DNA of 63,953 nt, the filler included, from Acidimicrobiia bacterium (lineage in GTDB: Bacteria; Actinomycetota; Acidimicrobiia; Spongiisociales; CAZKJJ01), in assembly GCA_046759765.1 (NCBI GenBank). It is 8 parts of 8 records of this genome, joined end to end, with 100 filler letters (N's around TTAATTAATTAA, not from the genome) between each part and the next. Parts side by side here need not be neighbours in the genome. Positions count along the whole stretch, not along the records: positions 1 to 8,593 come from JBHICV010000109.1; 7 more parts are not named here. One strand, given 5' to 3'. The notes beneath the pieces were generated by a model. It was not told the DNA's origin. It searched no databases and worked only from the letters and a program-made list of their open reading frames with translations. Shown here one piece after another: positions 1 to 51,928 of the stretch (within the stretch, counting starts at the first letter, position 1; the number at the start of each line of letters is the position of its first letter). The position numbers were made by a program, and so were the translations under genes.

Positions 1-219
1 CGAGCGGATTCCATCGAGACGCTGACCGACCGGATGCAGCTGGTTAGTGTCGAGCTGATCGAGTGGTACGGAGTAAGACTGTTCACCGACGGCTGGATCG
101 CAGAAGACATCGATGAGGACGAGGTCTCTGTGCTGCAGGCGCTCGAATTGGAGGCGAGTGTTCGTGATCCTTACCGCCAGCTAAGCCGCCTCTTTCATTG
201 GGTTGGTCAACGCATCTAG
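1..219 (+). CDS. Probable SAM-dependent methyltransferase, C-terminal part (5' end outside window)
   Basis: Frame open from base 1; C-terminal WYGVRLFTD...ELEASVRDPYRQLSRLFH resembles actinobacterial class I methyltransferase C-termini. Confidence 0.55.
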   Translation, partial: RADSIETLTDRMQLVSVELIEWYGVRLFTDGWIAEDIDEDEVSVLQALELEASVRDPYRQLSRLFHWVGQRI

Positions 220-295
220 CGTTAACCGACCCCTGCACTGCGGCTCGCCCGACCAAGCACGAATCGCGCCGAGTTCACACCGCATCGGCCACGCA

Positions 296-323
296 CCCGC
301 CCATATCGGCATGTATCCGCTAC
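296..323 (+). repeat. dif-like 28-bp site copy A (CCCGCCCATAT CGGCAT GTATCCGCTAC)
   Basis: Matches copies at 1095, 1357, 3671, 4682 and 51901(-); the repeat is direct observation, the function is inferred. Confidence 0.65.
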
Positions 324-501
324 CCAGGACGTAGGCGAAACTGAGGGTATCGCCGGTCATCTAACCGTGGAAGGATGATTCGTCGCTGGTAGTCCCCTGT
401 GTTGCAAGGGCAGGGGCGGACATCCACGGTCCAAAGTACGGTCGATCCGTGAAAAGCGATCCGACTCTCTGCGGCGGAACAGGCGACCCACCGGTGACTG
501 A

Positions 502-1089
502 ATGAGTGAGCTTGCAGCATTAGCCGCGTTCTCGTTCGTGAGCGCCGCGACGCCCGGACCCAACAATGTCATGTTGTGGGCATCCGGAGTCCAGTTCGGT
601 CTCCGGCCAACTCTGCCCCATGTCTTTGGAACATCCATTGGCATTGGGACGATGGCGGTCGCTGTTGCCGCTGGGCTGGGGGTTCTGATCACCACATTTC
701 CCCAGCTGGAGTTGACGCTGAGAGTAATCGGATCTCTTTATCTGCTGTACCTCGCCTACAAGATCGCAGGCATCAGCGTCGTCCAGCAATCCAACATGGC
801 CAGTCCGCTCGGGCTGGGACAGGCGACAGCATTCCAATACGTCAACCCCAAGGCCTGGGTATTCGTCCTGGCAGCACTCACCGCTTTTCGGCCAACCGGA
901 CTGCCAGTTGTCCTGGGTAGTGCACTCATGGCGCTAACCATGATGTTCGTTGTCGTCCCTGCGGCCTTCCTATGGGCAGCTGGAGGCACCGTCCTCAACC
1001 GCCTCATCAGCGGACGGCAGGCGCGCCGCATCCTCAGCGTCATCCTTGCTGTCTTACTCGCTGCCACCGTTGCCTACATCTGGATCTGA
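502..1089 (+). CDS. LysE family translocator
   Basis: ATPGPNN, YLLYLAYKIA and FQYVNPKAW motifs; hydrophobic 195 aa. Confidence 0.93.
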   Translation: MSELAALAAFSFVSAATPGPNNVMLWASGVQFGLRPTLPHVFGTSIGIGTMAVAVAAGLGVLITTFPQLELTLRVIGSLYLLYLAYKIAGISVVQQSNMASPLGLGQATAFQYVNPKAWVFVLAALTAFRPTGLPVVLGSALMALTMMFVVVPAAFLWAAGGTVLNRLISGRQARRILSVILAVLLAATVAYIWI

Positions 1090-1094
1090 GATGA

Positions 1095-1122
1095 GCCGCC
1101 CATATCGGCACACATGCGCTGG
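1095..1122 (+). repeat. dif-like site copy B (GCCGCCCATAT CGGCAC ACATGCGCTGG)
   Basis: 5 bp after the LysE stop codon; matches the other copies. Confidence 0.7.
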
Positions 1123-1174
1123 CTCAATCGCTCACGGGGCGTACACTCGCCGCGTCTGGATGAGGTAGGTGAGT

Positions 1175-1357
1175 ATGAGCTCTAGCAGAGCAGGTGTCGC
1201 GGGTGGAGGGGCGATCTACGGCCTGGGCATTTTCGGAGCATTCGTGTACTTCTGGCAGCAAGCAGACACGTTCTGGGAGTACGTGTTGTCCTTCTTCCAG
1301 GGACTCTTGTGGCCAGCCTTCATGGTCTATGAAGTCTTCGCTGCCCTTCGCGGCTGA
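1175..1357 (+). CDS. Small two-helix membrane protein
   Basis: 60 aa, GAIYGLGIFGAFVYFWQQA...QGLLWPAFMVYE; purine-rich SD upstream. Confidence 0.8.
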   Translation: MSSSRAGVAGGGAIYGLGIFGAFVYFWQQADTFWEYVLSFFQGLLWPAFMVYEVFAALRG

Positions 1358-1384
1358 CCGCCTATATCGGCACATATGCAGAAC
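1357..1384 (+). repeat. dif-like site copy C (ACCGCCTATAT CGGCAC ATATGCAGAAC)
   Basis: Starts on the last base of the TGA stop; ATAT/ATAT inverted repeat around a 6-bp spacer. Confidence 0.7.
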
Positions 1385-1811
1385 TGAAGTAGACGACGGG
1401 TGCTTGCCCATATTCCGGTTATGGCCAAGAGGGGCGTGGGTTGAGATACGAACTGCTGACACTCGCTTGAACCCACTACTCAATCTGGCGACCGAAAGCA
1501 CCAAGATGGTCTCGGCGGGTCTCTAGCCACCCATTTCAACGGCCCCGTCGCGCGAAGCAAGATGAGCGTATGCTCACACGGTCGAGTGGACGGAGGATGG
1601 GGGCCTACTTGAGGTGTTCAGACGTCCCTCGCCAAACTGGGACTTCGCGGTGCCGCGAGCACCGAGGAGTGGACATAAGCTTGGGGCTCCGGCGGCTCGG
1701 GATCGCTATCTAGGTATTCACGATCGCGCTGGGACTTTGCCATCATCTTGAAGGTGTTGCGGTTCAATCGCTCCGGATGCCCCATCTAGTGAAAGAGAGG
1801 GGTGTAGCCGA

Positions 1812-2480
1812 ATGGAAGAGCCATTGAACGCTGCGATCACAGCCCTAGTGGTCACAGACCCTCAGAACGACTTTCTGAGCACAAAGGGCGCGTTCTGGGA
1901 CGCGGTAAAGCAGAGCGTGAATGAGAACAACACGATCGAGAACATCGAAACGATGTTCCGCGCTGCCAAGGAGGGCGGGGTTCCGGTGTTCATCTCGCCT
2001 CACTATTACTTCCCGTGGGACCACAAGTGGAAGTTCGCAGGCACGATCGAAAAGGCGATGCACGACGTTGGTATGTACGATCGGCCGAACCCCCTCGACT
2101 TGACCGGGTTCGAAGGCTCTGGTGCTGACTTTCTGGATCAGTACAAGCAGTACATCCACGACGGCGAGACGGTGGTTGCCAGTCCGCACAAGGTCTACGG
2201 CCCGGAGAACAACGATCTCCTGCTTCAGCTGAGAAAGCGGCGCATCGACTCCGTTTACTTGTGCGGAATGTCAGCCAATCTGTGCACCGAGGCGCACCTG
2301 CGCGAATTTCTGGAACAGGGATTCGAGGTGACTGTGGTCAGGGACGCCACGGCGGCGGCGATACTCCCCGACCTCGGCGACGGTTACGCGGCGGCGCTGA
2401 CCAACTTCAAGTTCCTAGCGAATGCTGTGGTCCGCACTGAAGAGGCGGCGTCGGCACTCCAGACTGCCAAAGCCGAATAA
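1812..2480 (+). CDS. Cysteine hydrolase (isochorismatase family)
   Basis: TDPQNDF, HKVYGP and GMSANLC motifs (D-K-C triad); SD GAGAGG. Confidence 0.92.
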   Translation: MEEPLNAAITALVVTDPQNDFLSTKGAFWDAVKQSVNENNTIENIETMFRAAKEGGVPVFISPHYYFPWDHKWKFAGTIEKAMHDVGMYDRPNPLDLTGFEGSGADFLDQYKQYIHDGETVVASPHKVYGPENNDLLLQLRKRRIDSVYLCGMSANLCTEAHLREFLEQGFEVTVVRDATAAAILPDLGDGYAAALTNFKFLANAVVRTEEAASALQTAKAE

Positions 2481-2696
2481 GGGTCGGACGCAGTCGGGCG
2501 TCTTCTTGCGTGGTGACGGCAGGCTGGCTTCGGTCCGACACGTTTCGCGCGTCCGAAGGACTCCAGGACGTCACGCAGGTGGTGCTGACAACCGAGCTGA
2601 GTATGGGCGACGCGGTGCGGATGCCGCTTGTTTGCGCAGGGCGCGTGCGCGCCGATTTTCGGTTTGATCCGAGGGCTACGGATTGAAGGGGGTGGT

Positions 2697-3512
2697 TTGG
2701 CTTCCGTCCTTCGGTTGTTTCCCGGTCCGGTCACAGAGTTACCGTTGGAAGGGCTCTATCTGGGGCTCAACCTTCGGGACTCGCAAAGAACCGACCGTGC
2801 GTTCGTTTATAGCTCCTTTGTCATGAGTCTCGACGGTCGGATCGCGGTTGGGCAGCCCGACGATTCGATCGGCGGTGTCCCGGCCGCAATTGCAAATGAC
2901 CGTGACTGGCGTCTGTTCCAGGAGTTGGCGATCCAGGCTGACGTCCTGATCACCAGCGGCCGGTACGCGCGCCGGCGGATGTACGGAAACGCTGATCCAA
3001 TCGTCACGGTGTACGACGACCCTCGGCTGGCCGACCTGGTGTCTTGGCGCCGAGACCATGGGCTGCCTGACCAGCCGGTGGTGGCCGTGGTTAGTCGCTC
3101 GCTCGACTTCGACCCCTCCGGTCTCCACGCCGGCGACGTCATAGTCATCACCGCAAACAGCGCGGACTCCGAGCGCGTCGGAGCGATTAGACAAGCGGGC
3201 CTGCCGGTTCACATTGCAGGGGACGACTCCGTTGAAGGAAGTGAGATGGCCCGTCAGCTAGCCGAAGAAGGGCTACGGATAGCGTTCTCCGCCGCCGGAC
3301 CCCAAGTCCTGTGGACACTGATCGATGCCGGAAGACTCGATCGCCTCTTCCTCACTCTCACCGACCGAATACTGGGAGGTGAAAGCTATACAGGTCTGGT
3401 GGAGGGCGCCGTCTTCAGAACACCCGTGCGTATGGGTCTCAAGTCGCTCTACCTGGACCAAGGATCCGATGGGGCCACTGAGCAGCTATTCGTCAGTTAT
3501 TTTCCGACGTAG
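2697..3512 (+). CDS. RibD C-terminal/dihydrofolate reductase family protein
   Basis: FVMSLDGRIA, DWRLFQEL, AGPQV and LDRLFLT motifs; start placed at TTG 2697 after GAAGGGGG. Confidence 0.85.
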   Translation: MASVLRLFPGPVTELPLEGLYLGLNLRDSQRTDRAFVYSSFVMSLDGRIAVGQPDDSIGGVPAAIANDRDWRLFQELAIQADVLITSGRYARRRMYGNADPIVTVYDDPRLADLVSWRRDHGLPDQPVVAVVSRSLDFDPSGLHAGDVIVITANSADSERVGAIRQAGLPVHIAGDDSVEGSEMARQLAEEGLRIAFSAAGPQVLWTLIDAGRLDRLFLTLTDRILGGESYTGLVEGAVFRTPVRMGLKSLYLDQGSDGATEQLFVSYFPT

Positions 3513-3521
3513 GTGAAATAA

Positions 3522-3671
3522 GCCCCGGCCACTGGCCGACTTGTCTTCAATCTCTTTGGCCTGCCCTACCCCGGCCTCTACGACAAATTCCTGATCGTTG
3601 TGAGCTTCGTGTTCAACGCAATGATCGTCTGGTATGCCTGGACGTGGATCTCCGCCCTTGCCCAGTCCTAG
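3522..3671 (+). pseudogene. 3' fragment of a membrane protein gene (DUF6326-like)
   Basis: Frame with no start codon at its 5' end, LVFNLFGLPYPGLYDKFLIVVSFVFNAMIVWYAWTWISALAQS*; IVWYAWxW end resembles DUF6326 C-termini; not in the ORF track. Confidence 0.5.
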
Positions 3672-3698
3672 CTGCCTGTAGAGGCACATATGTGTTAC
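3671..3698 (+). repeat. dif-like site copy D (GCTGCCTGTAG AGGCAC ATATGTGTTAC)
   Basis: 16/19 identity to copy C over gcctNtaNNggcacatatg; starts on the last base of a TAG stop, same register as copy C. Confidence 0.6.
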
Positions 3699-3756
3699 TC
3701 GAGATAGATCTAAGGGTTGAGATCTTGCGGCTGATGGGCGGGCCTAGCCTTCTTCC

Positions 3757-4656
3757 GTGACCGGATCTCCTGATCTGTTGGTGCGTGTTGGTGATCGTCG
3801 CCTGCATGGCTGGCTTGGGGGAGCTGCCGACGGGTTGGCGCTGTTGTTTCAGCCGGGTACGCCCGCACCGCCGGTGTACTGGGCTTCTCTCGATCGTGCA
3901 GCAAAGGAACGTGGCCTGACGCTCCTCAGCTACGCCCGGCCGGGCTATTCGGGTTCCACTCGCCACCACGGACGGTCGGTCACAGACGCTGCGGCGGATG
4001 CATCGTCTGTGATGGAACACGCCGAAGCGGACGTTTTCGTGACTTTGGGTCATTCCGGTGGCGGACCGCACGCCCTTGCCTGTGCGGCTCTTCTTCCCAA
4101 CCAATGTGTCGGTACTGCGACACTGGGTTCCGTTGCCCCGTTCGATCTGTTTGGCGGCGACTGGATGATGGGAATGGCGAATGAGAATGTCGAGGAGTTC
4201 ACCACCGCATTGCAGGGGGAAGAAGCCCTCGAGCCGTTTCTGGCTGCTGAACTCGACCACTATTCCGCAGTAACGGGGGAGGACATCGCCGCGGCGCTTC
4301 GCGGCCTGGTCTCCGATGTTGATCGGAAAGCGCTGACCGGGGAACTAGCCGACGTGTTCGCCCGCTCTATCCGGCGGGCTGCTGCCGACGGGCTAGAGGG
4401 TTGGATCGACGACGACCTGGCTTTTTCGAAGCCGTGGGGATTCGACCTGGGGTCAATAGAAACGCCAGTGGCAATCTGGCAGGGACGGCACGATCGGATG
4501 GTTCCCTTCGCCCATGGAGAATGGTTGCATTCCCATATCCCTACCTCGAAGCCGCGGCTTCTCGAGGACGAAGGCCATATCTCGCTTCTAACGGAACGAC
4601 TGGGCGACATACTCGACGACCTCGTAGATATCTCAGATACCCGTGAGCCGCTGTAG
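3757..4656 (+). CDS. Alpha/beta fold hydrolase
   Basis: GHSGG nucleophile elbow, WQGRHDRMVP, EGHIS; TAGCCT 6 nt before GTG (leaderless). Confidence 0.93.
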   Translation: MTGSPDLLVRVGDRRLHGWLGGAADGLALLFQPGTPAPPVYWASLDRAAKERGLTLLSYARPGYSGSTRHHGRSVTDAAADASSVMEHAEADVFVTLGHSGGGPHALACAALLPNQCVGTATLGSVAPFDLFGGDWMMGMANENVEEFTTALQGEEALEPFLAAELDHYSAVTGEDIAAALRGLVSDVDRKALTGELADVFARSIRRAAADGLEGWIDDDLAFSKPWGFDLGSIETPVAIWQGRHDRMVPFAHGEWLHSHIPTSKPRLLEDEGHISLLTERLGDILDDLVDISDTREPL

Positions 4657-4681
4657 GCAGATCGGAGACAACCGCCCAGCA

Positions 4682-4710
4682 CCCGCCCATACCCGGCACA
4701 TAACGCCTGA
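4682..4710 (+). repeat. dif-like site copy E, 1-bp insertion (CCCGCCCATAC C CGGCAC ATAACGCCTGA)
   Basis: 25 bp after the hydrolase stop; shares GCACCCGCCCATA with copy A. Confidence 0.55.
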
Positions 4711-4751
4711 ATGGCAAAAACCAAGTCCATGGCGTGTATGGACGGCCACAC

Positions 4752-5315
4752 TCAGACGTGGGTAAGCACACCCTCTAGCGGCCGAGGCACCCGGGTCAGG
4801 TCAAGCGCATCTACTAGCAAGCGCCCGTACCGGGTCTTCCGCCCGGACCCGGCGCCGAAGAAACGCCGAAGCTGCTCCTCGCTGGCCCTGGTTCGCCACG
4901 GCGGCTGGTTTTGGAGGGTGCGAAAGGCCCCGAGCTCACCTTGACTCTCGATGACCCTCTCCACCGAGTCGACCCCAAGAGCCCGAATCAGCTCGTCCTC
5001 GAGGTCAACGACGCAGACGTAGAAACCCAGCGCCTCCATATCAGAGCGGGAGAGATCGGTGCCGAGTCCAGCTCGCTCCAGCCCTCGCTGAAAGTCGGCT
5101 ACCTCGCCTTTGTCGCAAAGGCCCGCCACTGTGCCTTCAAACCCCTGGACACCCAACAGGCGGTCCAAATACTCTCCCAGCGCCGCAGCACCGCCCATCG
5201 GCATCACCGATACGCCCTCCGCTTCAAGATTCCGTCCCAAACGTCCTGCCAGCGCTTCAAGGGCCACCTGATCGCTGACACCTTCAACAAGAACAACTGC
5301 TTCGACGCTCTTCAC
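4752..5315 (-). CDS. Stand-alone TOPRIM (OLD-nuclease-like) domain protein
   Basis: VVLVEGVSD, MGGA, GLCD and CVVDLEDELIRALG motifs; TACTCT 6 nt before GTG 5315. Confidence 0.85.
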   Translation of the reverse strand: MKSVEAVVLVEGVSDQVALEALAGRLGRNLEAEGVSVMPMGGAAALGEYLDRLLGVQGFEGTVAGLCDKGEVADFQRGLERAGLGTDLSRSDMEALGFYVCVVDLEDELIRALGVDSVERVIESQGELGAFRTLQNQPPWRTRASEEQLRRFFGAGSGRKTRYGRLLVDALDLTRVPRPLEGVLTHV

Positions 5316-5741
5316 AGGATGAGAGTATCGCCCCCACCCTTCATCGCCGGATAACGCGCGCTGGCTGACGCTCGATATAGCGCTAGGAGGCGAGTCACCT
5401 GTACGCACCAGAATCGCGTGTGGCGCGATTCGGGTGAAAGAGCCTTTACGACGTGAGAGAGTTGGCGTGGTTGCCGAATCCATCAACGAGTCATTCACGG
5501 ACTTCGCGACAGCGGGGTCGGGTTCTTCTTAGCTGCGGCAATGGTTGGGCAGCGAACGCGGCAGTTTGGTGTTGCGGTACCTCCAACAAACACGACAACC
5601 AGCTTCAAAGGGCTGAAGCACAGGCCGTGCGGCTTGCGGCCATCGATCCGGCGCATCGGGGACTCGTCGTGGTGGGCCCAGCGGTGTGAGGAGGGAGGAG
5701 TGTTCGGGAACCGGATCGGTAGCCTCAGGTGTCAAATCTGT

Positions 5742-6515
5742 ATGCGCTTTTGGCAACGTATTGGACTGCTCCTCGTGGCGGCGTTGCTGTTTGCCGCCTG
5801 TGGATCGGATGAGCCCCCCTCCGCACAGACGCTTGAAGGAGCTTGGGTGTTGACCGCTGCCTCGGTCGATCGGACAACCCTCAGGCTGGACGACAGGTGG
5901 CGGGTCACGATGACGATTGCGGGTGCCGAAATCTCCGGTCGGGCCGCATGTAACAGCTATGGCGGAGCTGTCTCGATTGACAACGGGATGTTTTCGGTTG
6001 GCGAGATCGCTCAAACCGAGATGGCCTGTGAGCCGGTTGTGATGGAGATCGAGTCGTCGTTCATGCAAGGATTGCTCCGCGTCACAGCTGCCACCCGCTC
6101 TGGCGACATCGCTTCGCTCACCGGCGAGGGCGTCGAGTACACATTCAGCCTTCTTCCACCCGTTCCGACTGCCGAGTTGATTGGAACCAGATGGTCGCTG
6201 GACACCATCATCCGCGGTGACACAGCTAGCTCCACCGCGGCTACTGCCGACCCTGCCACGCTGCTTCTCAACGATGATGAGACGTTCATCGGTAGCACTG
6301 GCTGCCGTGAGATCTCGGGCGAGTACGTCGTGTTGGGCGACACAGTCCAGTTCACGTCGTTCAGCGCCGACGGCGAGTGCCGCACCGAAGTCCGGTCTCA
6401 GGACAGCCAAGTCGTGACTGTGCTGGGAGACGGATTCAGGGTCGAGATCGACGGCGACCGGCTCACTGTCACCGCCTCGGGAGGAGAAGGGCTCTCGTAC
6501 AGAGCGGAGCGATGA
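5742..6515 (+). CDS. META (HslJ) domain lipoprotein, two META domains
   Basis: Lipobox LFAAC; GRAACNSY..TEMAC and GSTGCRE repeats; start moved to ATG 5742. Confidence 0.88.
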   Translation: MRFWQRIGLLLVAALLFAACGSDEPPSAQTLEGAWVLTAASVDRTTLRLDDRWRVTMTIAGAEISGRAACNSYGGAVSIDNGMFSVGEIAQTEMACEPVVMEIESSFMQGLLRVTAATRSGDIASLTGEGVEYTFSLLPPVPTAELIGTRWSLDTIIRGDTASSTAATADPATLLLNDDETFIGSTGCREISGEYVVLGDTVQFTSFSADGECRTEVRSQDSQVVTVLGDGFRVEIDGDRLTVTASGGEGLSYRAER

Positions 6516-6581
6516 ATCGACACTGGCTCGTCACTGCGTGCCGAACGCCAGCAAAGGTGCACCCTGGATAGAGTTTGATCC

Positions 6582-7928
6582 TTGGAGCCCACTACTGGAT
6601 ATGCGGAGCTCGGTGATCAGCGGATCGCCTATCAGATCCTGGGTGACGGTCCGATCGATGTGGTCTACACGTTTGGATTCGTGGGTTCGATCGACGTCGA
6701 GTGGGAGGATCCGTCTGTCCGGCTCTTCTTTCAGCAGATAGCGAGGTACGCCAGGGTCATCCGGTTCGACCGGCGGGGCACAGGGGCGTCTGATCCGATC
6801 GCTTTGGATGCGCTGCCGCCGTGGGAGTCTTTCGCCGACGAAATCGAGGCGGTCATGGATTCAGTGGGATCAGATCAGGCTGCCGTCATCGCCGGGGGCC
6901 CGGCAGGCCCGGTCGGTCTGCTCTTTGCCGCCACCCGTCCGGAGCGGGTGAGGGCCCTCATTCTCTATCAGACGAGCGTCCGCTACCTGGAGGATGACGA
7001 CTATCCCATCGGGATTCCCCGCCAACAGTTAAACGAGTATCAGGCCCGGGTTCGAGAAGGCTGGGGCACCGGTGAGGTGCTGGACCTGATGTTTCCCAGC
7101 CGGGCGGGTGACGAGCGGTTCCGGACTTGGTACGCGAAGCTCGAGCGGTCGATCAGCAGCCCAGGGGCGATCCAGAAGTACATGGAAGCCGAGGCGGAGA
7201 TAGACGCCCGCGCCCTTTTGCCCACGATCACCGTACCTACCTTGGTGATCCATCGAACTGACAGCGAAGTCTCGCCGCTGGCCTGGGGGAGGTACATCGC
7301 CGACCACATCGAGGGGGCCCGGCTGGTTGAGCTACCCGGCGGCGACGTTGCCCCGTACTGGGACCATCCGGAACTCACCCTCGACGCGACCGAAGAGTTC
7401 CTGACCGGAATACGCAGGGAAGCGCCCAAGGACCGGCAGCTTGCCACCGTTCTCTTCACGGACGTCGTTGATTCCACCCGGAAAGCCGAGGAGCTCGGTG
7501 ACCGCCGTTGTCGGGTGCTGATCGACCTTCACGACAGCACGGCCCGTGACCTCGTGCATGATCACGCCGGCCACCTGGTCAGGACCACCGGGGACGGCAT
7601 CCTGGCCACTTTCGATGGGCCGGGCCGAGCAATCCGGGGTGCCACCGTCCTGCAGGACGAGCTCGCCAAAGCGGACCTGCAGATCCGCACCGGAATCCAC
7701 GCTGGAGAGATAGAGATCCTCGACAACGACGTGGCTGGCATTGCCGTCCATCTGGCCGCACGCATCATGGCTGCCGCCGGAGCCGGGGAGATCATGGTGT
7801 CCCGCACCGTCCGTGACCTGGTAGTGGGTTCGGGCATCTCCTTCAAGGACCGCGGCTCGTACACCCTCAAAGGCATCGAAGGCGAATGGCAGCTCTACTT
7901 GGTCATCCAACCCGGCGCGGTTACCTAG
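6582..7928 (+). CDS. Alpha/beta-hydrolase fold fused to class III adenylate/guanylate cyclase (LipJ-like)
   Basis: FDRRGTGASD N-terminal fold; TVLFTDVVDST, TTGDG and GIAVHLAARI cyclase motifs. Confidence 0.92.
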   Translation: MEPTTGYAELGDQRIAYQILGDGPIDVVYTFGFVGSIDVEWEDPSVRLFFQQIARYARVIRFDRRGTGASDPIALDALPPWESFADEIEAVMDSVGSDQAAVIAGGPAGPVGLLFAATRPERVRALILYQTSVRYLEDDDYPIGIPRQQLNEYQARVREGWGTGEVLDLMFPSRAGDERFRTWYAKLERSISSPGAIQKYMEAEAEIDARALLPTITVPTLVIHRTDSEVSPLAWGRYIADHIEGARLVELPGGDVAPYWDHPELTLDATEEFLTGIRREAPKDRQLATVLFTDVVDSTRKAEELGDRRCRVLIDLHDSTARDLVHDHAGHLVRTTGDGILATFDGPGRAIRGATVLQDELAKADLQIRTGIHAGEIEILDNDVAGIAVHLAARIMAAAGAGEIMVSRTVRDLVVGSGISFKDRGSYTLKGIEGEWQLYLVIQPGAVT

Positions 7929-8145
7929 CCGCGATCTGCGCTTCGAAGGTCTCCTAGGACGCAAGCACATGTCACCCGATCTCGAGCGGTCACGCCGGTT
8001 CCACGAAACGCACCGAACGAGCACTTCGGAGTGCGTGTCGTGGCATCATCCGCCACATGATCTCGGCTGACCAAGTCATGCCGCTTTTCCTTGAGTTCTG
8101 GTCCTCCGATTCACGCTCCATGACATCGACGGCGACTCGGCGCCG

Positions 8146-8593
8146 GTGATGGACATCGCGAGGCGCCGCAAGCTCGCTCGGGATCTCCTCGCTGGCTATG
8201 CGAGTGGCCCCGCTGCGGCGACTCAACCGACGGCCCGGGCGCTGGCGAGGGTGGAAGAGGCGCGCGCCATCGTGTTCGTCGAAGGGATCAGCGACCAGAT
8301 CGCGCTTGAGACGCTCGCCGGGCGTCGCGGCCGGGATCTCGATGCCGAAGGCGTGTTGGTCCTGCCGTTGGGCGGCGCCCAAGCGATCGTTCGCTACCTG
8401 CCCCGGTTTGCTCCCGCGGGAGCGGACGTGAGACTGGCCGGTCTCAGCGACGCGGGCGAGGAGGACATCTTCCGGCGCGGTCTCGCCAGGGCCGGCTTCG
8501 GTTCGCCCCAGACCCGCGCCGACATGGGGCGCCTGGGCTTCTACGTCTGGGTGGAGGATCTGGAGGACGAGTTGATTCGCGCCGTGGGTTCCC
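8146..8593 (+). CDS. Second TOPRIM (OLD-like) domain protein, 3' truncated by contig end
   Basis: IVFVEGISD, LGGA and DLEDELIRAVG motifs; paralogue of 4752-5315. Confidence 0.82.
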
Positions 8594-51900: not shown

Positions 51901-51928
51901 CCGCTCAATATGTGCCGATCTAGCGCAC
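51901..51928 (-). repeat. dif-like site copy F (GTGCGCTAGAT CGGCAC ATATTGAGCGG)
   Basis: 15/16 identity to copy C over ctaNatcggcacatat; ~80 bp downstream of and co-oriented with the BTAD gene. Confidence 0.6.

Follow-up and report, generated by a model that had tools for sequence, protein, structure and literature searches.

Dif-like sites as predicted recombination borders of gene cassettes in an Acidimicrobiia MAG

Contig C109 of an Acidimicrobiia MAG (G000; GCA_046759765.1) carries a short motif that recurs between small, unrelated genes, which raises the question of whether the motif is a recombination site delimiting gene cassettes or a repeat of another origin. The window, by which we mean the whole stretch of 63,953 nucleotides analyzed, is a chain of small MAG contigs, and only positions 1 to 8593 (C109) bear on the site array. 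The other genomes compared were also mostly MAGs.

Sites and cargo on contig C109

A first-pass annotation had reported 5 co-oriented copies of a 28-bp site on C109, and all 5 (A to E) were confirmed in place on the + strand, with the layout CCGCCCATAT-CGGCAC-ATATGCGCTACC. The site description needed an addition, as the conserved 28-bp unit extends into CTACC. A decayed second site of a different spacer class also lies 43–45 bp 3' of copies A, C, and D. Copies A, B, and C were strong and D and E decayed, with ungapped identity scored against the 28-mer consensus CCGCCCATATCGGCACATATGCGCTACC. The copies (site 1) and their partner sites (site 2 class) were identified as follows.

297..324, + strand: site 1 copy A, CCGCCCATAT-CGGCAT-GTATCCGCTACC; 25/28 to the consensus, 3 mismatches to the 23-mer
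346..361, + strand: decayed partner site of copy A, of the site 2 class with a TGCCGG-like spacer; 11/16 match to the site 2 core, 44 bp after the copy A core, the canonical offset
1096..1123, + strand: site 1 copy B; 25/28 to the consensus, 1 mismatch to the 23-mer
1358..1385, + strand: site 1 copy C; 23/28, with an exact 15-mer core at 1364-1378, the copy starting at the base right after the stop codon
1408..1423, + strand: decayed partner site of copy C (site 2 class); 11/16, 45 bp after the core, the canonical offset
3672..3699, + strand: site 1 copy D, decayed; 20/28 to the consensus
3721..3741, + strand: decayed partner site of copy D, GATCTTGCGGCTGATG then GGCGG, with the G-type outer arm present; matches the site 2 core at 11/16 with an offset of 43, aligned and scored by hand
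4683..4711, + strand: site 1 copy E, a relic and the final site of the array, read by eye; CCGCCCATA and CGGCACATA kept, one extra base in the spacer region, right arm decayed

No position reached 20/28 in 50 shuffles of C109 (mean of 0.04 per shuffle at 19/28), and the 23-mer at up to 3 mismatches had 3 matches in the window versus 0 in 100 shuffles. The 15-mer core at up to 3 mismatches had 5 matches in the window versus a shuffle mean of 0.37. One of the 5 core matches is weak and lies at 51907, on a different contig. For the site 2 core, control windows scored at least 11/16 in 0.2% of cases. Motif scans of C109 past copy E, up to 8593, found no further site. The copies were also confirmed to follow + strand stop codons, at distances of 77 nt (A), 6 nt (B), 0 nt (C and D), and 26 nt (E). 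The array at 297-4711 appears to be an old example, with A, D, and E decaying and B and C close to intact, and it may no longer be active because its copies are partly decayed.

The cargo genes, all on the + strand, were annotated as follows.

1..219, + strand: 3' end of a methyltransferase-like gene, 72 codons, open at the contig edge, assigned by similarity to contig C186
502..1089, + strand: cassette 1 cargo, a LysE-type translocator of 195 aa (Pfam PF01810, E 8.9e-14)
1169..1357, + strand: cassette 2 cargo, a hydrophobic protein of 62 aa without a Pfam family
1812..2480, + strand: cassette 3 cargo a, an isochorismatase-family (cysteine) hydrolase of 222 aa (Pfam PF00857, E 9.6e-27)
2628..3512, + strand: cassette 3 cargo b, a RibD_C-domain reductase-like protein (Pfam PF01872, E 3.7e-15)
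3522..3671, + strand: gene fragment, 49 codons from a hydrophobic C-terminus, without a start codon, its stop abutting copy D
3757..4656, + strand: cassette 4 cargo, an alpha/beta hydrolase of 299 aa (Pfam PF00561, E 4.4e-13)

The methyltransferase-like gene is the final gene of the cassette preceding copy A; bases 1-231 of C109 are 92% identical to the end of C186, where the matching ORF has Methyltransf_11/12/25 domains and site 1 also sits upstream of the gene. Individual C109 cassettes were found again on unrelated contigs of other genomes. The cassette 2 gene together with copy C recurs at 76–82% DNA identity on unrelated contigs of G001, G043 (2 places), and G045, with similarity stopping at 1377–1379, within copy C. 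The fragment at 3522..3671 recurs in G045:C262 and G041:C97 (76–78% identity), adjoining a site in the latter, and an 84%-identical copy of the isochorismatase-family gene was identified in G041:C60, without sites within 1.5 kb.

Distribution of the sites and exchange breakpoints

Scatter of the motif through housekeeping DNA was checked in G000, which has 30 copies at up to 3 mismatches: 29 lie on contigs shorter than 10 kb, which make up 1.0 of 2.73 Mb, and 1 on the 1.73 Mb in contigs of at least 10 kb. Five other MAGs have 24, 26, 104, 15, and 21 copies. Of 401 genomes belonging to the same order, 53 have the exact 16-bp core (0 for the reversed control), and 17 of these 53 have at least 5 exact copies, with a maximum of 112. 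The arrays are chromosomal and lie beside tRNA genes, several per genome, and the composite site pair had no match in 72,556 plasmid records.

Among adjacent site pairs, 175 of 187 were co-oriented, with a median spacing of 822 bp (interquartile range, 552–1436). In 130 unique cassettes, a median of 87% of the cassette length is taken up by its longest ORF, and cargo lies on the site strand in 63 and on the opposite strand in 60; the loci behind the pair and cassette counts were de-duplicated roughly, and some pairs are possibly counted twice. The cassettes are mostly single-gene modules with unrelated cargo on either strand, and no recurring protein family was found among the cargo, the biggest cluster comprising 9 of 157 site-bearing loci. 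The integron-like layout proposed in the first-pass annotation holds for the co-oriented site arrays but not for expression logic, because the cargo strands are nearly balanced.

A set of 201 unique site 1 copies, drawn from the window, G000 contigs, and other genomes, has the anatomy ATAT-CGGCAC-ATAT in common, with a left arm of CCGCCC or TAGCGC type and a right arm of GCGCTAC type. In about 20–45% of cases, site 1 is accompanied by a second site, 45 bp downstream, that has the spacer TGCCGG and was recognizable for 8 of 39 copies in G000 and 108 of 241 in other genomes. Only these 2 spacer classes were identified, conserved across families of the order, and in both arm variants, taking the reverse complement of the site 1 spacer and shifting it by one base gives the site 2 spacer.

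In related genomes, cassette gain and loss maps to the sites and, more finely, to the 6-bp spacer. At the tRNA-Arg(acg) locus of the congeneric G024 and G094, a slot with different contents (775 bp vs 1214 bp) lies between flanking cassettes that are 99.1% and 99.5% identical. At junctions 1 and 3, identity spans the left arm and spacer and ends at the first right-arm base, and at junction 2 it resumes at the inner left arm and spacer; the breakpoints fall at spacer edges where just 6–16 bp are shared, and the junctions are lone site 1 copies. This break in homology within the 6-bp spacer is as expected of tyrosine-recombinase exchange. Two cassettes of this array also occur in a separate G024 array, each beginning at a site, and other genome pairs gave additional breakpoints at sites. 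Breakpoints away from sites also occur, as between L078 and L221, which diverge within an ORF at a point 607 bp away from the closest site.

Near-palindromic arms separated by 6 bp would also suit an operator of a dimeric transcription factor controlling accessory genes, a reading we regard as scarcely credible, given that the sites occur as often behind stop codons or between convergent genes as ahead of genes, are co-oriented (175/187 adjacent pairs), match exchange breakpoints, and accompany cargo of unrelated function.

An IS110-family RNA-guided transposase gene adjoins sites on C259 and C172, and an IS110-family element is inserted in the site 2 spacer at 5 loci or more, as might be seen if the sites were ends or targets of transposable elements (MITE, IS ends, or IS110 target) and the cassettes ordinary genes between insertions. 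The element, however, splits sites and is not bounded by them, targeting the partner site without forming it; further, the sites are direct and not inverted repeats, the majority of arrays are without a transposase, and entire genes between 2 sites are swapped with junctions within the spacer. We consider such an origin, which the first-pass annotation had raised for IS or MITE ends, highly improbable.

The sites may also be compared to REP/BIME-like intergenic palindromes, which would affect DNA topology or mRNA 3' ends, multiply through drift or a REP-associated transposase, and serve as rearrangement hot spots and not as dedicated recombination sites. They are short imperfect intergenic palindromes, present in tens to roughly 100 copies in a genome and in some cases paired with an inverted inner segment, and the full site pair can fold as a bulged hairpin (z of −5.6 and −5.1 on the 2 strands). 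The insertion of an IS110-family element into the sites fits as well, since IS110-family elements insert into REPs in other systems. We nevertheless assign this reading a very small probability: the Y1/RAYT gene was identified in 0 of 5 site-bearing genomes searched (controls positive in 6 of 14), 29 of 30 copies lie in the fragmented portion of the MAG and not genome-wide, 175 of 187 neighbors are co-oriented, breakpoints fall exactly at spacer edges with only 6–16 bp shared, and the window copies have neither a fold (z of 0.36 to −1.52) nor a T-run after them. A sister variant with a left arm identical to that of dif, described below, also argues against it.

Relation to dif and candidate recombinases

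The true dif of the order, located separately, is single copy in 31 of 41 relatives; in G025, whose genome is one contig, it is 51.5 kb away from the position opposite dnaA. G043 has 3 dif-type sites and is probably a mixed bin. In G045, the sister site variant is AGCGCCCATAA-GTGCCG-TTATGTGCGGG and dif is AGCGCCCATAA-TCCACG-TTATGTCAAGT, so that 11/11 left-arm and 7/11 right-arm bases agree. The window variant (CATAT/ATATG arms) matches the G000 dif at only 8/11 left-arm and 4/11 right-arm bases by hand count, and hybrid sites with one arm per variant (CATAA...ATATG) are common. No cassette site was found beside the G000 dif (C31:1151-1174), and in G024 dif is at 734952 on the contig whose arrays lie near 226 kb, 1190 kb, and 1803 kb.

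On the observed site anatomy, copy number, co-orientation, cargo diversity, dif kinship, and breakpoints inside the spacer, we consider it probable that the 28-bp motif is a core recombination site of a Xer-family tyrosine recombinase, delimiting co-oriented, mostly single-gene cassettes in arrays that would occupy a flexible part of the chromosome. The site would consist of 2 roughly 11-bp inverted arms around the asymmetric 6-bp crossover spacer CGGCAC. Serial integration of small cassettes at direct dif-type sites with this crossover spacer, as first suggested, is supported for these predicted sites, and all 3 checks named with it, on motif scatter, on breakpoints, and on another origin of the motif, favored it. 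A directly repeated site pair would recombine, the intervening DNA leaving as a circle with one site, and the circle would re-enter at any site of matching spacer in the reverse reaction; arrays would therefore grow, shrink, and swap slots. With exchange within the spacer, the left arm would stay attached to the upstream cassette, and the downstream cassette would keep the right arm. The second site 45 bp downstream (TGCCGG) would be unable to recombine with the first and would provide a second, independent exchange point on the other cassette flank. We infer the circular intermediates; neither a circular nor a cassette-less form was found in the only public runs holding C109, which are stored as assembled contigs and have 2 joints at a site, with short sides of 21 and 25 letters.

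The paired sites also allow a single-stranded folded substrate, in which site 1, a 17-nt linker, and site 2 would form one hairpin mimicking a duplex dif-like site with 2 bulged bases, like integron attC or CTX, and cassettes would move as single strands by one strand exchange and then replication. The CTX attachment site folds from 2 inverted dif-like sequences. The shifted reverse-complement spacer relation is kept in both arm variants, and 0 of 200 shuffles fold as well as the family 1 pair on either strand. CTX phage is described as integrating by exchange of a single strand pair using its single-stranded genome (PMC3442271). Several observations make this reading very unlikely: only 8/39 site 1 copies in G000 and 108/241 in other genomes have a recognizable site 2, family 2 pairs fold weakly (z of −0.7 to −3.4), arm types on the 2 sites vary independently, with no compensatory pattern by eye, and the G024/G094 junctions use lone site 1 copies. 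Nor was an integron integrase (IntI) identified, the 5 tyrosine recombinases tested scoring 59.6–123 bits versus a cut-off of 265.

The window is correctly described as lacking a recombinase, and no recombinase gene was found on the site-bearing contigs of G000. In some genomes the arrays include an accessory Xer-like recombinase; none was found in G000. XerD-type and XerC-type genes were identified in G000 and in 5 of 5 other site-bearing genomes checked, they are the only tyrosine recombinases seen in G042, and in genus g20, to which G024 and G094 belong, 5 of 10 genomes have sites and 0 of 10 the accessory recombinase. The accessory gene abuts sites in L295, G043:C217, and G045:C79 and lies between converging arrays in G123 and G014; among the 17 genomes with 5 or more sites, 10 have assemblies that lack it, and it is present in 27 genomes without an exact site. 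In G045:C79, a perfectly palindromic 28-bp-type site, its arms resembling the common right arm of site 1, lies 32 bp before the gene, whose product scores about 150 bits on XerC/XerD models, under their cut-offs. This gene is embedded in cassette arrays, alongside a normal XerC/XerD pair and dif in the genome. If these are recombination sites, the host XerC/XerD pair is our best guess for the enzyme in this MAG, about as apt to be right as wrong, the alternative being a dedicated Xer-like recombinase of the kind found within arrays in some related genomes.

Comparison with known cassette systems

No published description of this dif-like-site cassette system was found in the literature. As in the XerC/XerD-dependent dif modules of Acinetobacter, accessory genes are bounded by 28-bp arm/6-bp spacer/arm sites derived from the host dif, and cargo lies in either orientation without its own recombinase. 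On Acinetobacter Rep_3 plasmids, one such account limits pdif exchange to identical or near-identical spacers and has single modules replaced through one matching site pair per side (PMC13141974), and another describes an insertion sequence family that specifically targets pdif sites (PMC10132070), as the IS110 element does here. In contrast to pdif, the sites in this actinobacterial class are direct repeats (175/187), have only 2 spacer classes conserved across families of the order, and often stand in pairs 45 bp apart at junctions, and the arrays are chromosomal, next to tRNA genes; the composite pair had no match among the 72,556 plasmid records.

As in integrons, the arrays are co-oriented, and their cassettes mostly hold one gene, carry no recombinase, vary in function, and are of comparable size (median 822 bp here); in the window the recombination site directly follows the cargo gene, and arrays in some genomes are large. 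Unlike integrons, the system has no IntI among the 5 recombinases (59.6–123 bits vs 265), cargo shows no preferred strand (63 vs 60), array ends yielded no integrase-plus-attI platform, and a genome has several arrays. The sites are core sites of 28 bp and duplex type and not folded attC, which ranges from 57 to 141 bp.

Integrative mobile elements exploiting Xer (IMEX), including the CTX and TLC phages of Vibrio, are likewise integrase-less elements with direct dif-like flanks and use host XerC/XerD, and the paired inverted dif-like sequences here recall the folded CTX attachment site. The target of IMEX integration is the chromosomal dif itself, according to one preprint (bioRxiv 10.64898/2026.06.12.731946), whereas here the spacer is not that of dif, the G000 dif has no site beside it, the G024 arrays are at tRNA-linked loci far from dif, and the units are single genes and not phages. 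XerS is described as genetically linked to its dif-like site (PMC2731167), and the G045:C79 gene, with its palindromic site 32 bp before it, resembles the single-recombinase systems XerS/difSL and XerH/difH; unlike XerS and XerH, it coexists with a XerC/XerD pair and dif and lies in arrays, not at the terminus.

The analogy to dif is stronger than the first-pass annotation could show, as the sister variant shares the whole left arm of dif, and cassettes bounded by such dif-like sites look like integron-style gene shuffling built from Xer/dif machinery.

Cassette sites on contig C109 and across the MAG

The window of 63,953 bases brings together eight small contigs of a single MAG (G000; 308 contigs, 2.73 Mb, completeness of 92%) with runs of N between them, and the array lies on the first of these, C109. 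We identified five copies of a 28-bp motif (site 1, copies A to E) on C109, all in the same direction as the first-pass annotation had claimed, with copies A, B, and C being clear, copy D decayed and matched by no shuffle, and copy E a relic with one extra base. The genes proposed between the sites were recovered by Pfam as LysE, an isochorismatase family protein with RibD_C, and an alpha/beta hydrolase, and the gene fragment of the third module was found to be startless, with 49 codons. The small membrane protein proposed earlier stands as a 62-aa hydrophobic protein, family-less in Pfam.

The left edge of C109 is the 3' end of a methyltransferase-like gene, and its paralogue on contig C186 also lies behind a site, so the array probably continues past the left end of the contig. 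The cassette (the DNA between neighboring site 1 copies) encoding the 62-aa protein, together with copy C, and the fragment preceding copy D recurred singly on unrelated contigs of the genomes G001, G041, G043, and G045. No synteny of the whole C109 block was identified in relatives, recurrence being limited to single cassettes, and the window copies are an ageing example of the system. The genes beyond the last site were annotated as follows.

Genes past the last site on C109
4755-5498, - strand, OLD-like TOPRIM-domain gene, directly past the last site
5541-6512, + strand, META-domain gene
6582-7925, + strand, fusion of alpha/beta-hydrolase and adenylate/guanylate-cyclase

The hydrolase-cyclase fusion has a 448-aa paralogue on contig C130 and numerous partial copies among relatives, and on contig C301 of G043 it starts 46 bp past a site 1. 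A META-domain gene was also found upstream of the tRNA-Arg gene that adjoins an array in the related genome G024. At 51907-51921 of the window (- strand, contig C117), a weak match to the 15-mer core with 2 mismatches, whose partner site was not found (9/16), is probably chance or a relic. C109 was represented in four public runs of one study (word shares of 0.92, 0.74, 0.51, and 0.28), the data being assembled contigs; two joints of one contig each, 1120>1358 (side 21) and 1120>7095 (side 25), were too short to rely on, and the loose ends at 294 and 1096 were other site-bearing contigs of the same MAG.

Allowing up to 3 mismatches to the 23-mer, 30 copies were identified on 19 contigs of G000, and every contig with at least 2 copies carried them on a single strand, without exception. 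Contigs under 10 kb (n = 220, 1.0 Mb) held 29 of the 30 copies, and those of at least 10 kb (n = 88, 1.73 Mb) held 1, lying 41 bp from a contig end. The motif therefore marks a poorly assembling part of G000, presumably strain-variable, and not its core. The G+C of site-bearing contigs was 0.619 vs 0.630-0.632 for the rest.

The anatomy of the site was derived by aligning 40 copies found in G000 at up to 5 mismatches, as well as 201 unique copies taken from the window, G000 contigs, and other genomes. The conserved stretch in the G000 copies is 28 bp, CCGCCCATAT-CGGCAC-ATATGCGCTACC, and has the Xer/dif-type layout of approximately 28 bp, with inverted arms of about 11 bp, CATA(A/T) and (A/T)TATG inner ends, and a 6-bp center. 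Among the 201 unique copies, the left arm was CCGCCC-ATAT in approximately 55% and TAGCGC-ATAT in approximately 20%, the latter giving a perfect palindrome outside the spacer, followed by the spacer CGGCAC and the right arm ATAT-GCGCTA(C/G)C. A partner site (site 2), (GAGCGC or CCGCCC)ATAT-TGCCGG-(A/T)TATGCGCTAC, was found 28-32 bases past the core of 60 of these copies and upstream of none, and its spacer corresponds to that of site 1 in reverse complement, shifted by one base. With a looser score at the canonical offset, site 2 was identified at 8 of 39 G000 copies and 108 of 241 copies elsewhere, compared with 1.4% and 2% of control windows. In the window, copies A and C had a site 2 at 11/16 each, and that of copy D was identified by manual alignment.

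In a minority reading, the pair of site 1 and site 2 acts as a folded single strand: the full pair of family 1, the window's variant with CATAT/ATATG inner arms, forms a bulged hairpin of approximately 25 bp on either strand (z of -5.6 and -5.1, with 0 of 200 shuffles folding as well), and the one-base offset between the two spacers is conserved. However, pairs of family 2, the variant with dif-like arms from G045, folded weakly, window copies B and C gave no fold, most junctions are without a site 2, and the junctions compared between G024 and G094 (see below) are lone site 1 copies. A model in which the sites act as duplex DNA is enough.

An IS110-family element, whose transposase scored 161.6 bits on the NCBIfam "IS110 family RNA-guided transposase" model (cut-off of 140), sits inside the site 2 spacer, between CATAT-TG and CCGG-WTATG. 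Its left junction was identified on contigs C259 and C274 and its right junction on C172, and the cassette site seems to serve this element as a specific target.

IS110-family element
G000 contig C259, L183:560-1880
G000 contig C172, L177:1-1360
G000 contig C274, end of the contig
Also in loci L047, L083, L163, and L295

After rough de-duplication of loci, 175 of 187 adjacent site 1 pairs were co-oriented, and the sites were spaced by a median of 822 bp (10th-90th percentile of 292-1892 bp, maximum of 5227 bp). In 130 unique cassettes, the longest ORF occupied a median of 87% of the cassette, with 63 encoded on the site strand, 60 on the opposite strand, and 7 cassettes having an ORF under half of their length. 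The cargo was mixed, including transporters, hydrolases, methyltransferases, cyclases, sigma factors, an ABC/FtsX pair, an NYN-domain protein, and many family-less ORFs; the largest protein cluster was present in 9 of 157 site-bearing loci, with no dominant family. The earlier observation that the sites follow a stop codon is weak as a general rule, with 125 of 480 sites within 30 bp of a stop (ORFs of at least 60 aa).

Spread of the sites and their probable kinship with the host dif

When one genome per species was scanned, the exact 18-mer was identified in at least 153 stretches, which among the matches listed were mostly small contigs of a few MAGs, with 24, 26, 104, 15, and 21 copies in five MAGs from that scan, and a metagenome scan yielded at least 130 further stretches. 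In an even sample of G000's order, 53 of 401 genomes had the exact core CATAW-CGGCAC-WTATG, and the same core pattern reversed, as a control, was present in 0 of 401. At least 5 copies were found in 17 genomes (maximum of 112), belonging to the families f1, f2, f3, f9, and f11, and occurrence was patchy inside genera, such as 5 of 10 genomes in genus g20. The composite site had no match in the plasmid collection, viral contigs gave 1 stretch with a single exact 18-mer, and four site-rich loci returned 0 Rfam matches at E up to 1.

Hosts in Alphaproteobacteria, Gammaproteobacteria, and Gemmatimonadetes, as indicated by MAG labels including Kiloniellales, are not supported. The Xer proteins of MAGs with off-phylum labels were 55-68% identical to those of G000, as were those of G024 from the same order, and two such MAGs had the order-type dif in a single copy. 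Two were recognized by their contig numbers and coordinates as genomes assigned to G000's order (G042 as G177 and G041 as G224). G045, labelled as Acidimicrobiia, corresponds on the same grounds to G356 of that order, which fits an Acidimicrobiia identity of G000. G043, labelled as Gammaproteobacteria, had three order-type dif sites and is thus probably a mixed bin. MAGs labelled as Kiloniellales or Kiloniellaceae were placed in the order of this Acidimicrobiia MAG, with its dif type and Xer proteins present.

We identified one canonical candidate for the chromosomal dif of G000, ACTGCCCATAA-TCCCTC-TTATGTTAACT, at C31:1151-1174, and the same type, GCCCATAA-TCCACG-TTATGT(A/C)AAG, had exactly one copy in 31 of 41 relatives (a tally that includes G004 and G015, flagged unpublished). 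In G025, a single contig of 3,481,300 bases, this dif lies at 3,027,676 and dnaA at 1,338,560, which leaves 51.5 kb between dif and the antipode of dnaA. This is the true dif, the cassette motif being another sequence. The motif fails as the chromosomal dif proper, with 30 copies in G000. A single 2-mismatch match to the motif in the complete genome G025, 46 kb from the dnaA antipode but in apparent coding sequence, was superseded as a dif candidate once the true dif was found.

Integration of arrays at dif had no case in G000, where no sites were present within 1.1 kb on one side of dif and 1.5 kb on the other, and in G024 a distance of 0.45-1.07 Mb along one contig separates the arrays from dif. 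In these MAGs, the true dif is often no more than a few kb from contig ends (L364:7222-7249 in G045, L231 on G000:C31, and many relatives), and that of G045 occupies the final 29 bases of its contig, which suggests that strain-variable DNA adjoins the terminus.

The search for the dif type in G045 returned 99 matches, which represent a variant sister to the cassette sites with the forms GCGCCCATAA-GTGCCG-TTATGTGCGG and GCCCATAA-CCGGCA-TTATGTGCGG, their spacers being the two family 1 spacers read on the opposite strand. These sites were paired, 45 bp apart, at almost all cassette junctions of G045, and their left arm is identical to that of the G045 dif (AGCGCCCATAA-TCCACG-TTATGTCAAGT) at 11/11 positions and their right arm at 7/11. 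Mixed sites with one arm of each variant were common, and the array of G094 contains both variants. The likeness of the sister variant to the G045 dif, together with the mixed-arm sites, suggests that the sites of the window belong to a family descended from, or mimicking, the host dif, in which the spacers are constant and the inner positions of the arms vary between A and T. Compared directly with the G000 dif, the window variant shows a weaker likeness, with 8/11 positions in the left arm and 4/11 in the right, as counted by hand. One sister-variant site, CGATAA-GTGCCG-TTATGTGC, is also present outside the window at G000:C21:22588-22615, located 2.2 kb from a family 1 site at the end of C21 and on the same strand, as judged by the spacer.

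Exchange breakpoints and candidate recombinases

In a cross-genome, all-against-all comparison of loci, homology started or ended at sites. Locus L054 had 1.2 kb in common with L087, running through site 1 before the two diverged, and 1.1 kb in common with L096, beginning at site 2. Loci L061 and L067 had an 852-bp cassette in common at 95% identity, its right end coinciding with the boundary of left arm and spacer, at which the spacer orientations are opposite. Between L078 and L221, the breakpoint was within an ORF, with the nearest site 607 bp away.

The clearest case was the tRNA-Arg(acg) locus of G024 and G094, 2 genomes of one genus with Mb-size contigs. Downstream of the tRNA, an 853-bp cassette was 99.1% identical in the 2 genomes, the next slot held 775 bp in G024 and, with no similarity to these, 1214 bp (two cassettes) in G094, and beyond the slot 1766 bp were 99.5% identical before the arrays diverged. 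At junctions 1 and 3, identity spanned the left arm and CGGCAC and broke off at base 1 of the right arm, and at junction 2 the outer left arms were unlike and identity began at CATAT-CGGCAC. This pattern puts the exchange point within the 6-bp spacer, CGGCAC, to which the first-pass annotation had proposed testing whether breakpoints map, with the homology boundaries providing the comparative inference. The left arm would go with the upstream cassette and the right arm with the downstream cassette, and the breakpoints match the product that would be expected from strand exchange by a tyrosine recombinase. Homologous recombination over 6-16 common bases is not expected to produce such breakpoints repeatedly. 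Two cassettes of the G094 array were also identified in another array of G024 (L025), each starting at a site. Comparison of L378:4936-6342 (G094) with L023:8248-8265 (G024) revealed 1.4 kb present only in G094, with its right end falling within the spacer of the site 2 that comes first past tRNA-Arg.

Arrays were located on Mb-size chromosomal contigs, beside tRNA and housekeeping genes. Each of the 4 site clusters of G024 (L023-L026) had a tRNA gene less than 3 kb away (Arg-acg, Arg-cct, Ala, and Lys), the arrays of G094 (L378), G265 (L381), and G014 (L383) also adjoin tRNA genes, and the whole island of G123 (L382) is enclosed by two predicted tRNA-SeC copies with 10.8 kb between them. No tRNA was found in the L220, L221, and L279 stretches examined or on C109. 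The arrays may be inside tRNA-targeted genomic islands. In L219 and L298, tRNAs close to the arrays have phage-type integrase genes next to them.

G000 had 14 matches to PF00589, corresponding to about a dozen genes, with 0 such genes in the window or on site-bearing contigs of G000, in agreement with the earlier statement that the window lacks a recombinase. The gene on C33 is XerD-type (342.8 bits on PRK00283, cut-off of 279), the gene on C69 is XerC-type (287.5 bits, under the equivalog cut-off), and orthologues of both were identified in 5 of 5 other site-bearing genomes checked (G024, G041, G042, G043, and G045). G042 had no further tyrosine recombinases beyond this Xer pair. A family of phage-type integrases (approximately 380-500 aa) had 8 matches in G000 and one copy approximately 2 kb from sites in G041, and was rejected as the cognate enzyme; it was present in 28 of 41 relatives (a tally including the unpublished G004 and G015), most of them without sites, and is not specific, and G024 has only a fragment. 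Serine recombinases were also rejected, with one in 4 of 5 site-bearing genomes, none in G041, and no link to the sites.

A distinct Xer-like recombinase of approximately 300 aa abuts a canonical site 1 on the metagenome contig L295 and recurs in G043 (one gene) and G045 (two genes). One of the G045 genes lies 32 bp behind a site, perfectly palindromic, whose spacer is of a third kind, GGTAGCACATAA-TGTCTG-TTATGTGCTACC (L363:5354-5381, G045:C79), and this site may be the enzyme's own. The protein scored approximately 150 bits on XerC/XerD models, below their cut-offs, and far under the integron-integrase cut-off. It was identified in 44 of the 401 genomes sampled (a tally including the unpublished G254), and at least one exact site was present in 17 of these 44 genomes vs 36 of the 357 without it; since kin are not independent, this co-occurrence is only a hint. 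In G123 (L382, C1:2185.5-2192.2 kb) and G014 (L383, C1:522.4-528.6 kb), the gene is located where opposite arrays converge in a mirror-image layout, with + sites upstream and - sites downstream, and the G014 copy is a pseudogene with a stop codon inside.

The Xer-like recombinase was not found in G000 by tblastn, the best matches being the C33 XerD-type gene (34%) and the C69 XerC-type gene (32%), and it was likewise missing in all 10 genomes of g20, the genus of the recent slot replacement, and in 10 of the 17 genomes that carry 5 or more sites. Host XerC/XerD is thus rated the likeliest enzyme in G000 and g20, and we infer that it most likely acts there, with the Xer-like enzyme rated as a dedicated or ancestral partner elsewhere.

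Relation to known cassette systems

The nearest described system is that of the dif modules on Acinetobacter plasmids. Those modules also have dif-derived 28-bp sites, lack a recombinase, and exchange between sites with like spacers (PMC13141974), and they are accompanied by an IS family targeting the sites (PMC10132070). The 2 systems differ in site orientation, spacer diversity, replicon, and host. The Acinetobacter modules have inversely oriented flanking sites, with alternating C and D modules (PMC13141974), whereas the sites described here are direct in 175 of 187 adjacent pairs, a difference the first-pass annotation had rightly drawn, and are located on chromosomal contigs with no match in the plasmid collection, in contrast to the Rep_3-type plasmids of Acinetobacter.

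The arrays resemble integrons in their logic and differ in integrase, cargo orientation, and probably site type. Integron attC sites are long imperfect inverted repeats read in folded single-stranded form; of the sites described here, the full pair of site 1 and site 2 folded (z of -5.6), most junctions are without a site 2, and the window copies gave no fold. Among the 5 tyrosine recombinases scanned, no integron integrase was identified, with scores of 59.6-123 bits vs a cut-off of 265. Unlike in integrons, the cassette ORFs are on both strands (63 vs 60, n = 130). Like IMEX, the system would exploit Xer, but IMEX integrate at dif. REP/BIME elements were rejected, as PF01797 (Y1/RAYT) was present in 0 of 5 site-bearing genomes and the copies are not genome-wide, with 1 of 30 on contigs of at least 10 kb.

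The cassette array at dif-type sites proposed from C109 is real, and its interpretation was essentially right. Judged from sequence comparison, the system is probably a new chromosomal, direct-repeat form of Xer-site-bounded gene modules, widespread and patchy in one order of Acidimicrobiia. We give even chances to the broader reading that this order evolved an independent counterpart of the integron out of the Xer/dif resolution system, with chromosomal tRNA-linked arrays, heterospecific dif-derived sites, and slot-wise exchange. Under this reading, arrays would hold single-gene cassettes, up to a hundred or more, with dif-derived sites at the borders of each; these sites would fall into two spacer classes, CGGCAC and TGCCGG, that are heterospecific, which would permit slot-by-slot excision, insertion, and exchange as a natural form of recombinase-mediated cassette exchange. 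The driver would be host XerC/XerD or an Xer-like recombinase itself riding in the arrays.

In the literature covered, with subscription journals outside its scope, the motif strings occurred in 0 papers, and the portions of text available held no description of such a system. The known gene-cassette systems are mainly integrons, largely of Gram-negative bacteria, and the dif modules of Acinetobacter plasmids, and to our knowledge classical integrons are essentially unreported in Actinomycetota. If the reading is true, the arrays would be a third cassette system, independently derived, chromosomal, and in Actinomycetota, and would account for a share of the strain-variable DNA that fails to assemble in these MAGs (contigs under 10 kb hold 29 of 30 sites). 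They would also provide a defined 28-bp substrate for studying the recruitment of Xer away from dif without FtsK control. The two conserved spacer classes on common arms may form a site pair that is orthogonal by nature and, if so, could become a cassette-exchange tool for high-GC Gram-positive hosts.
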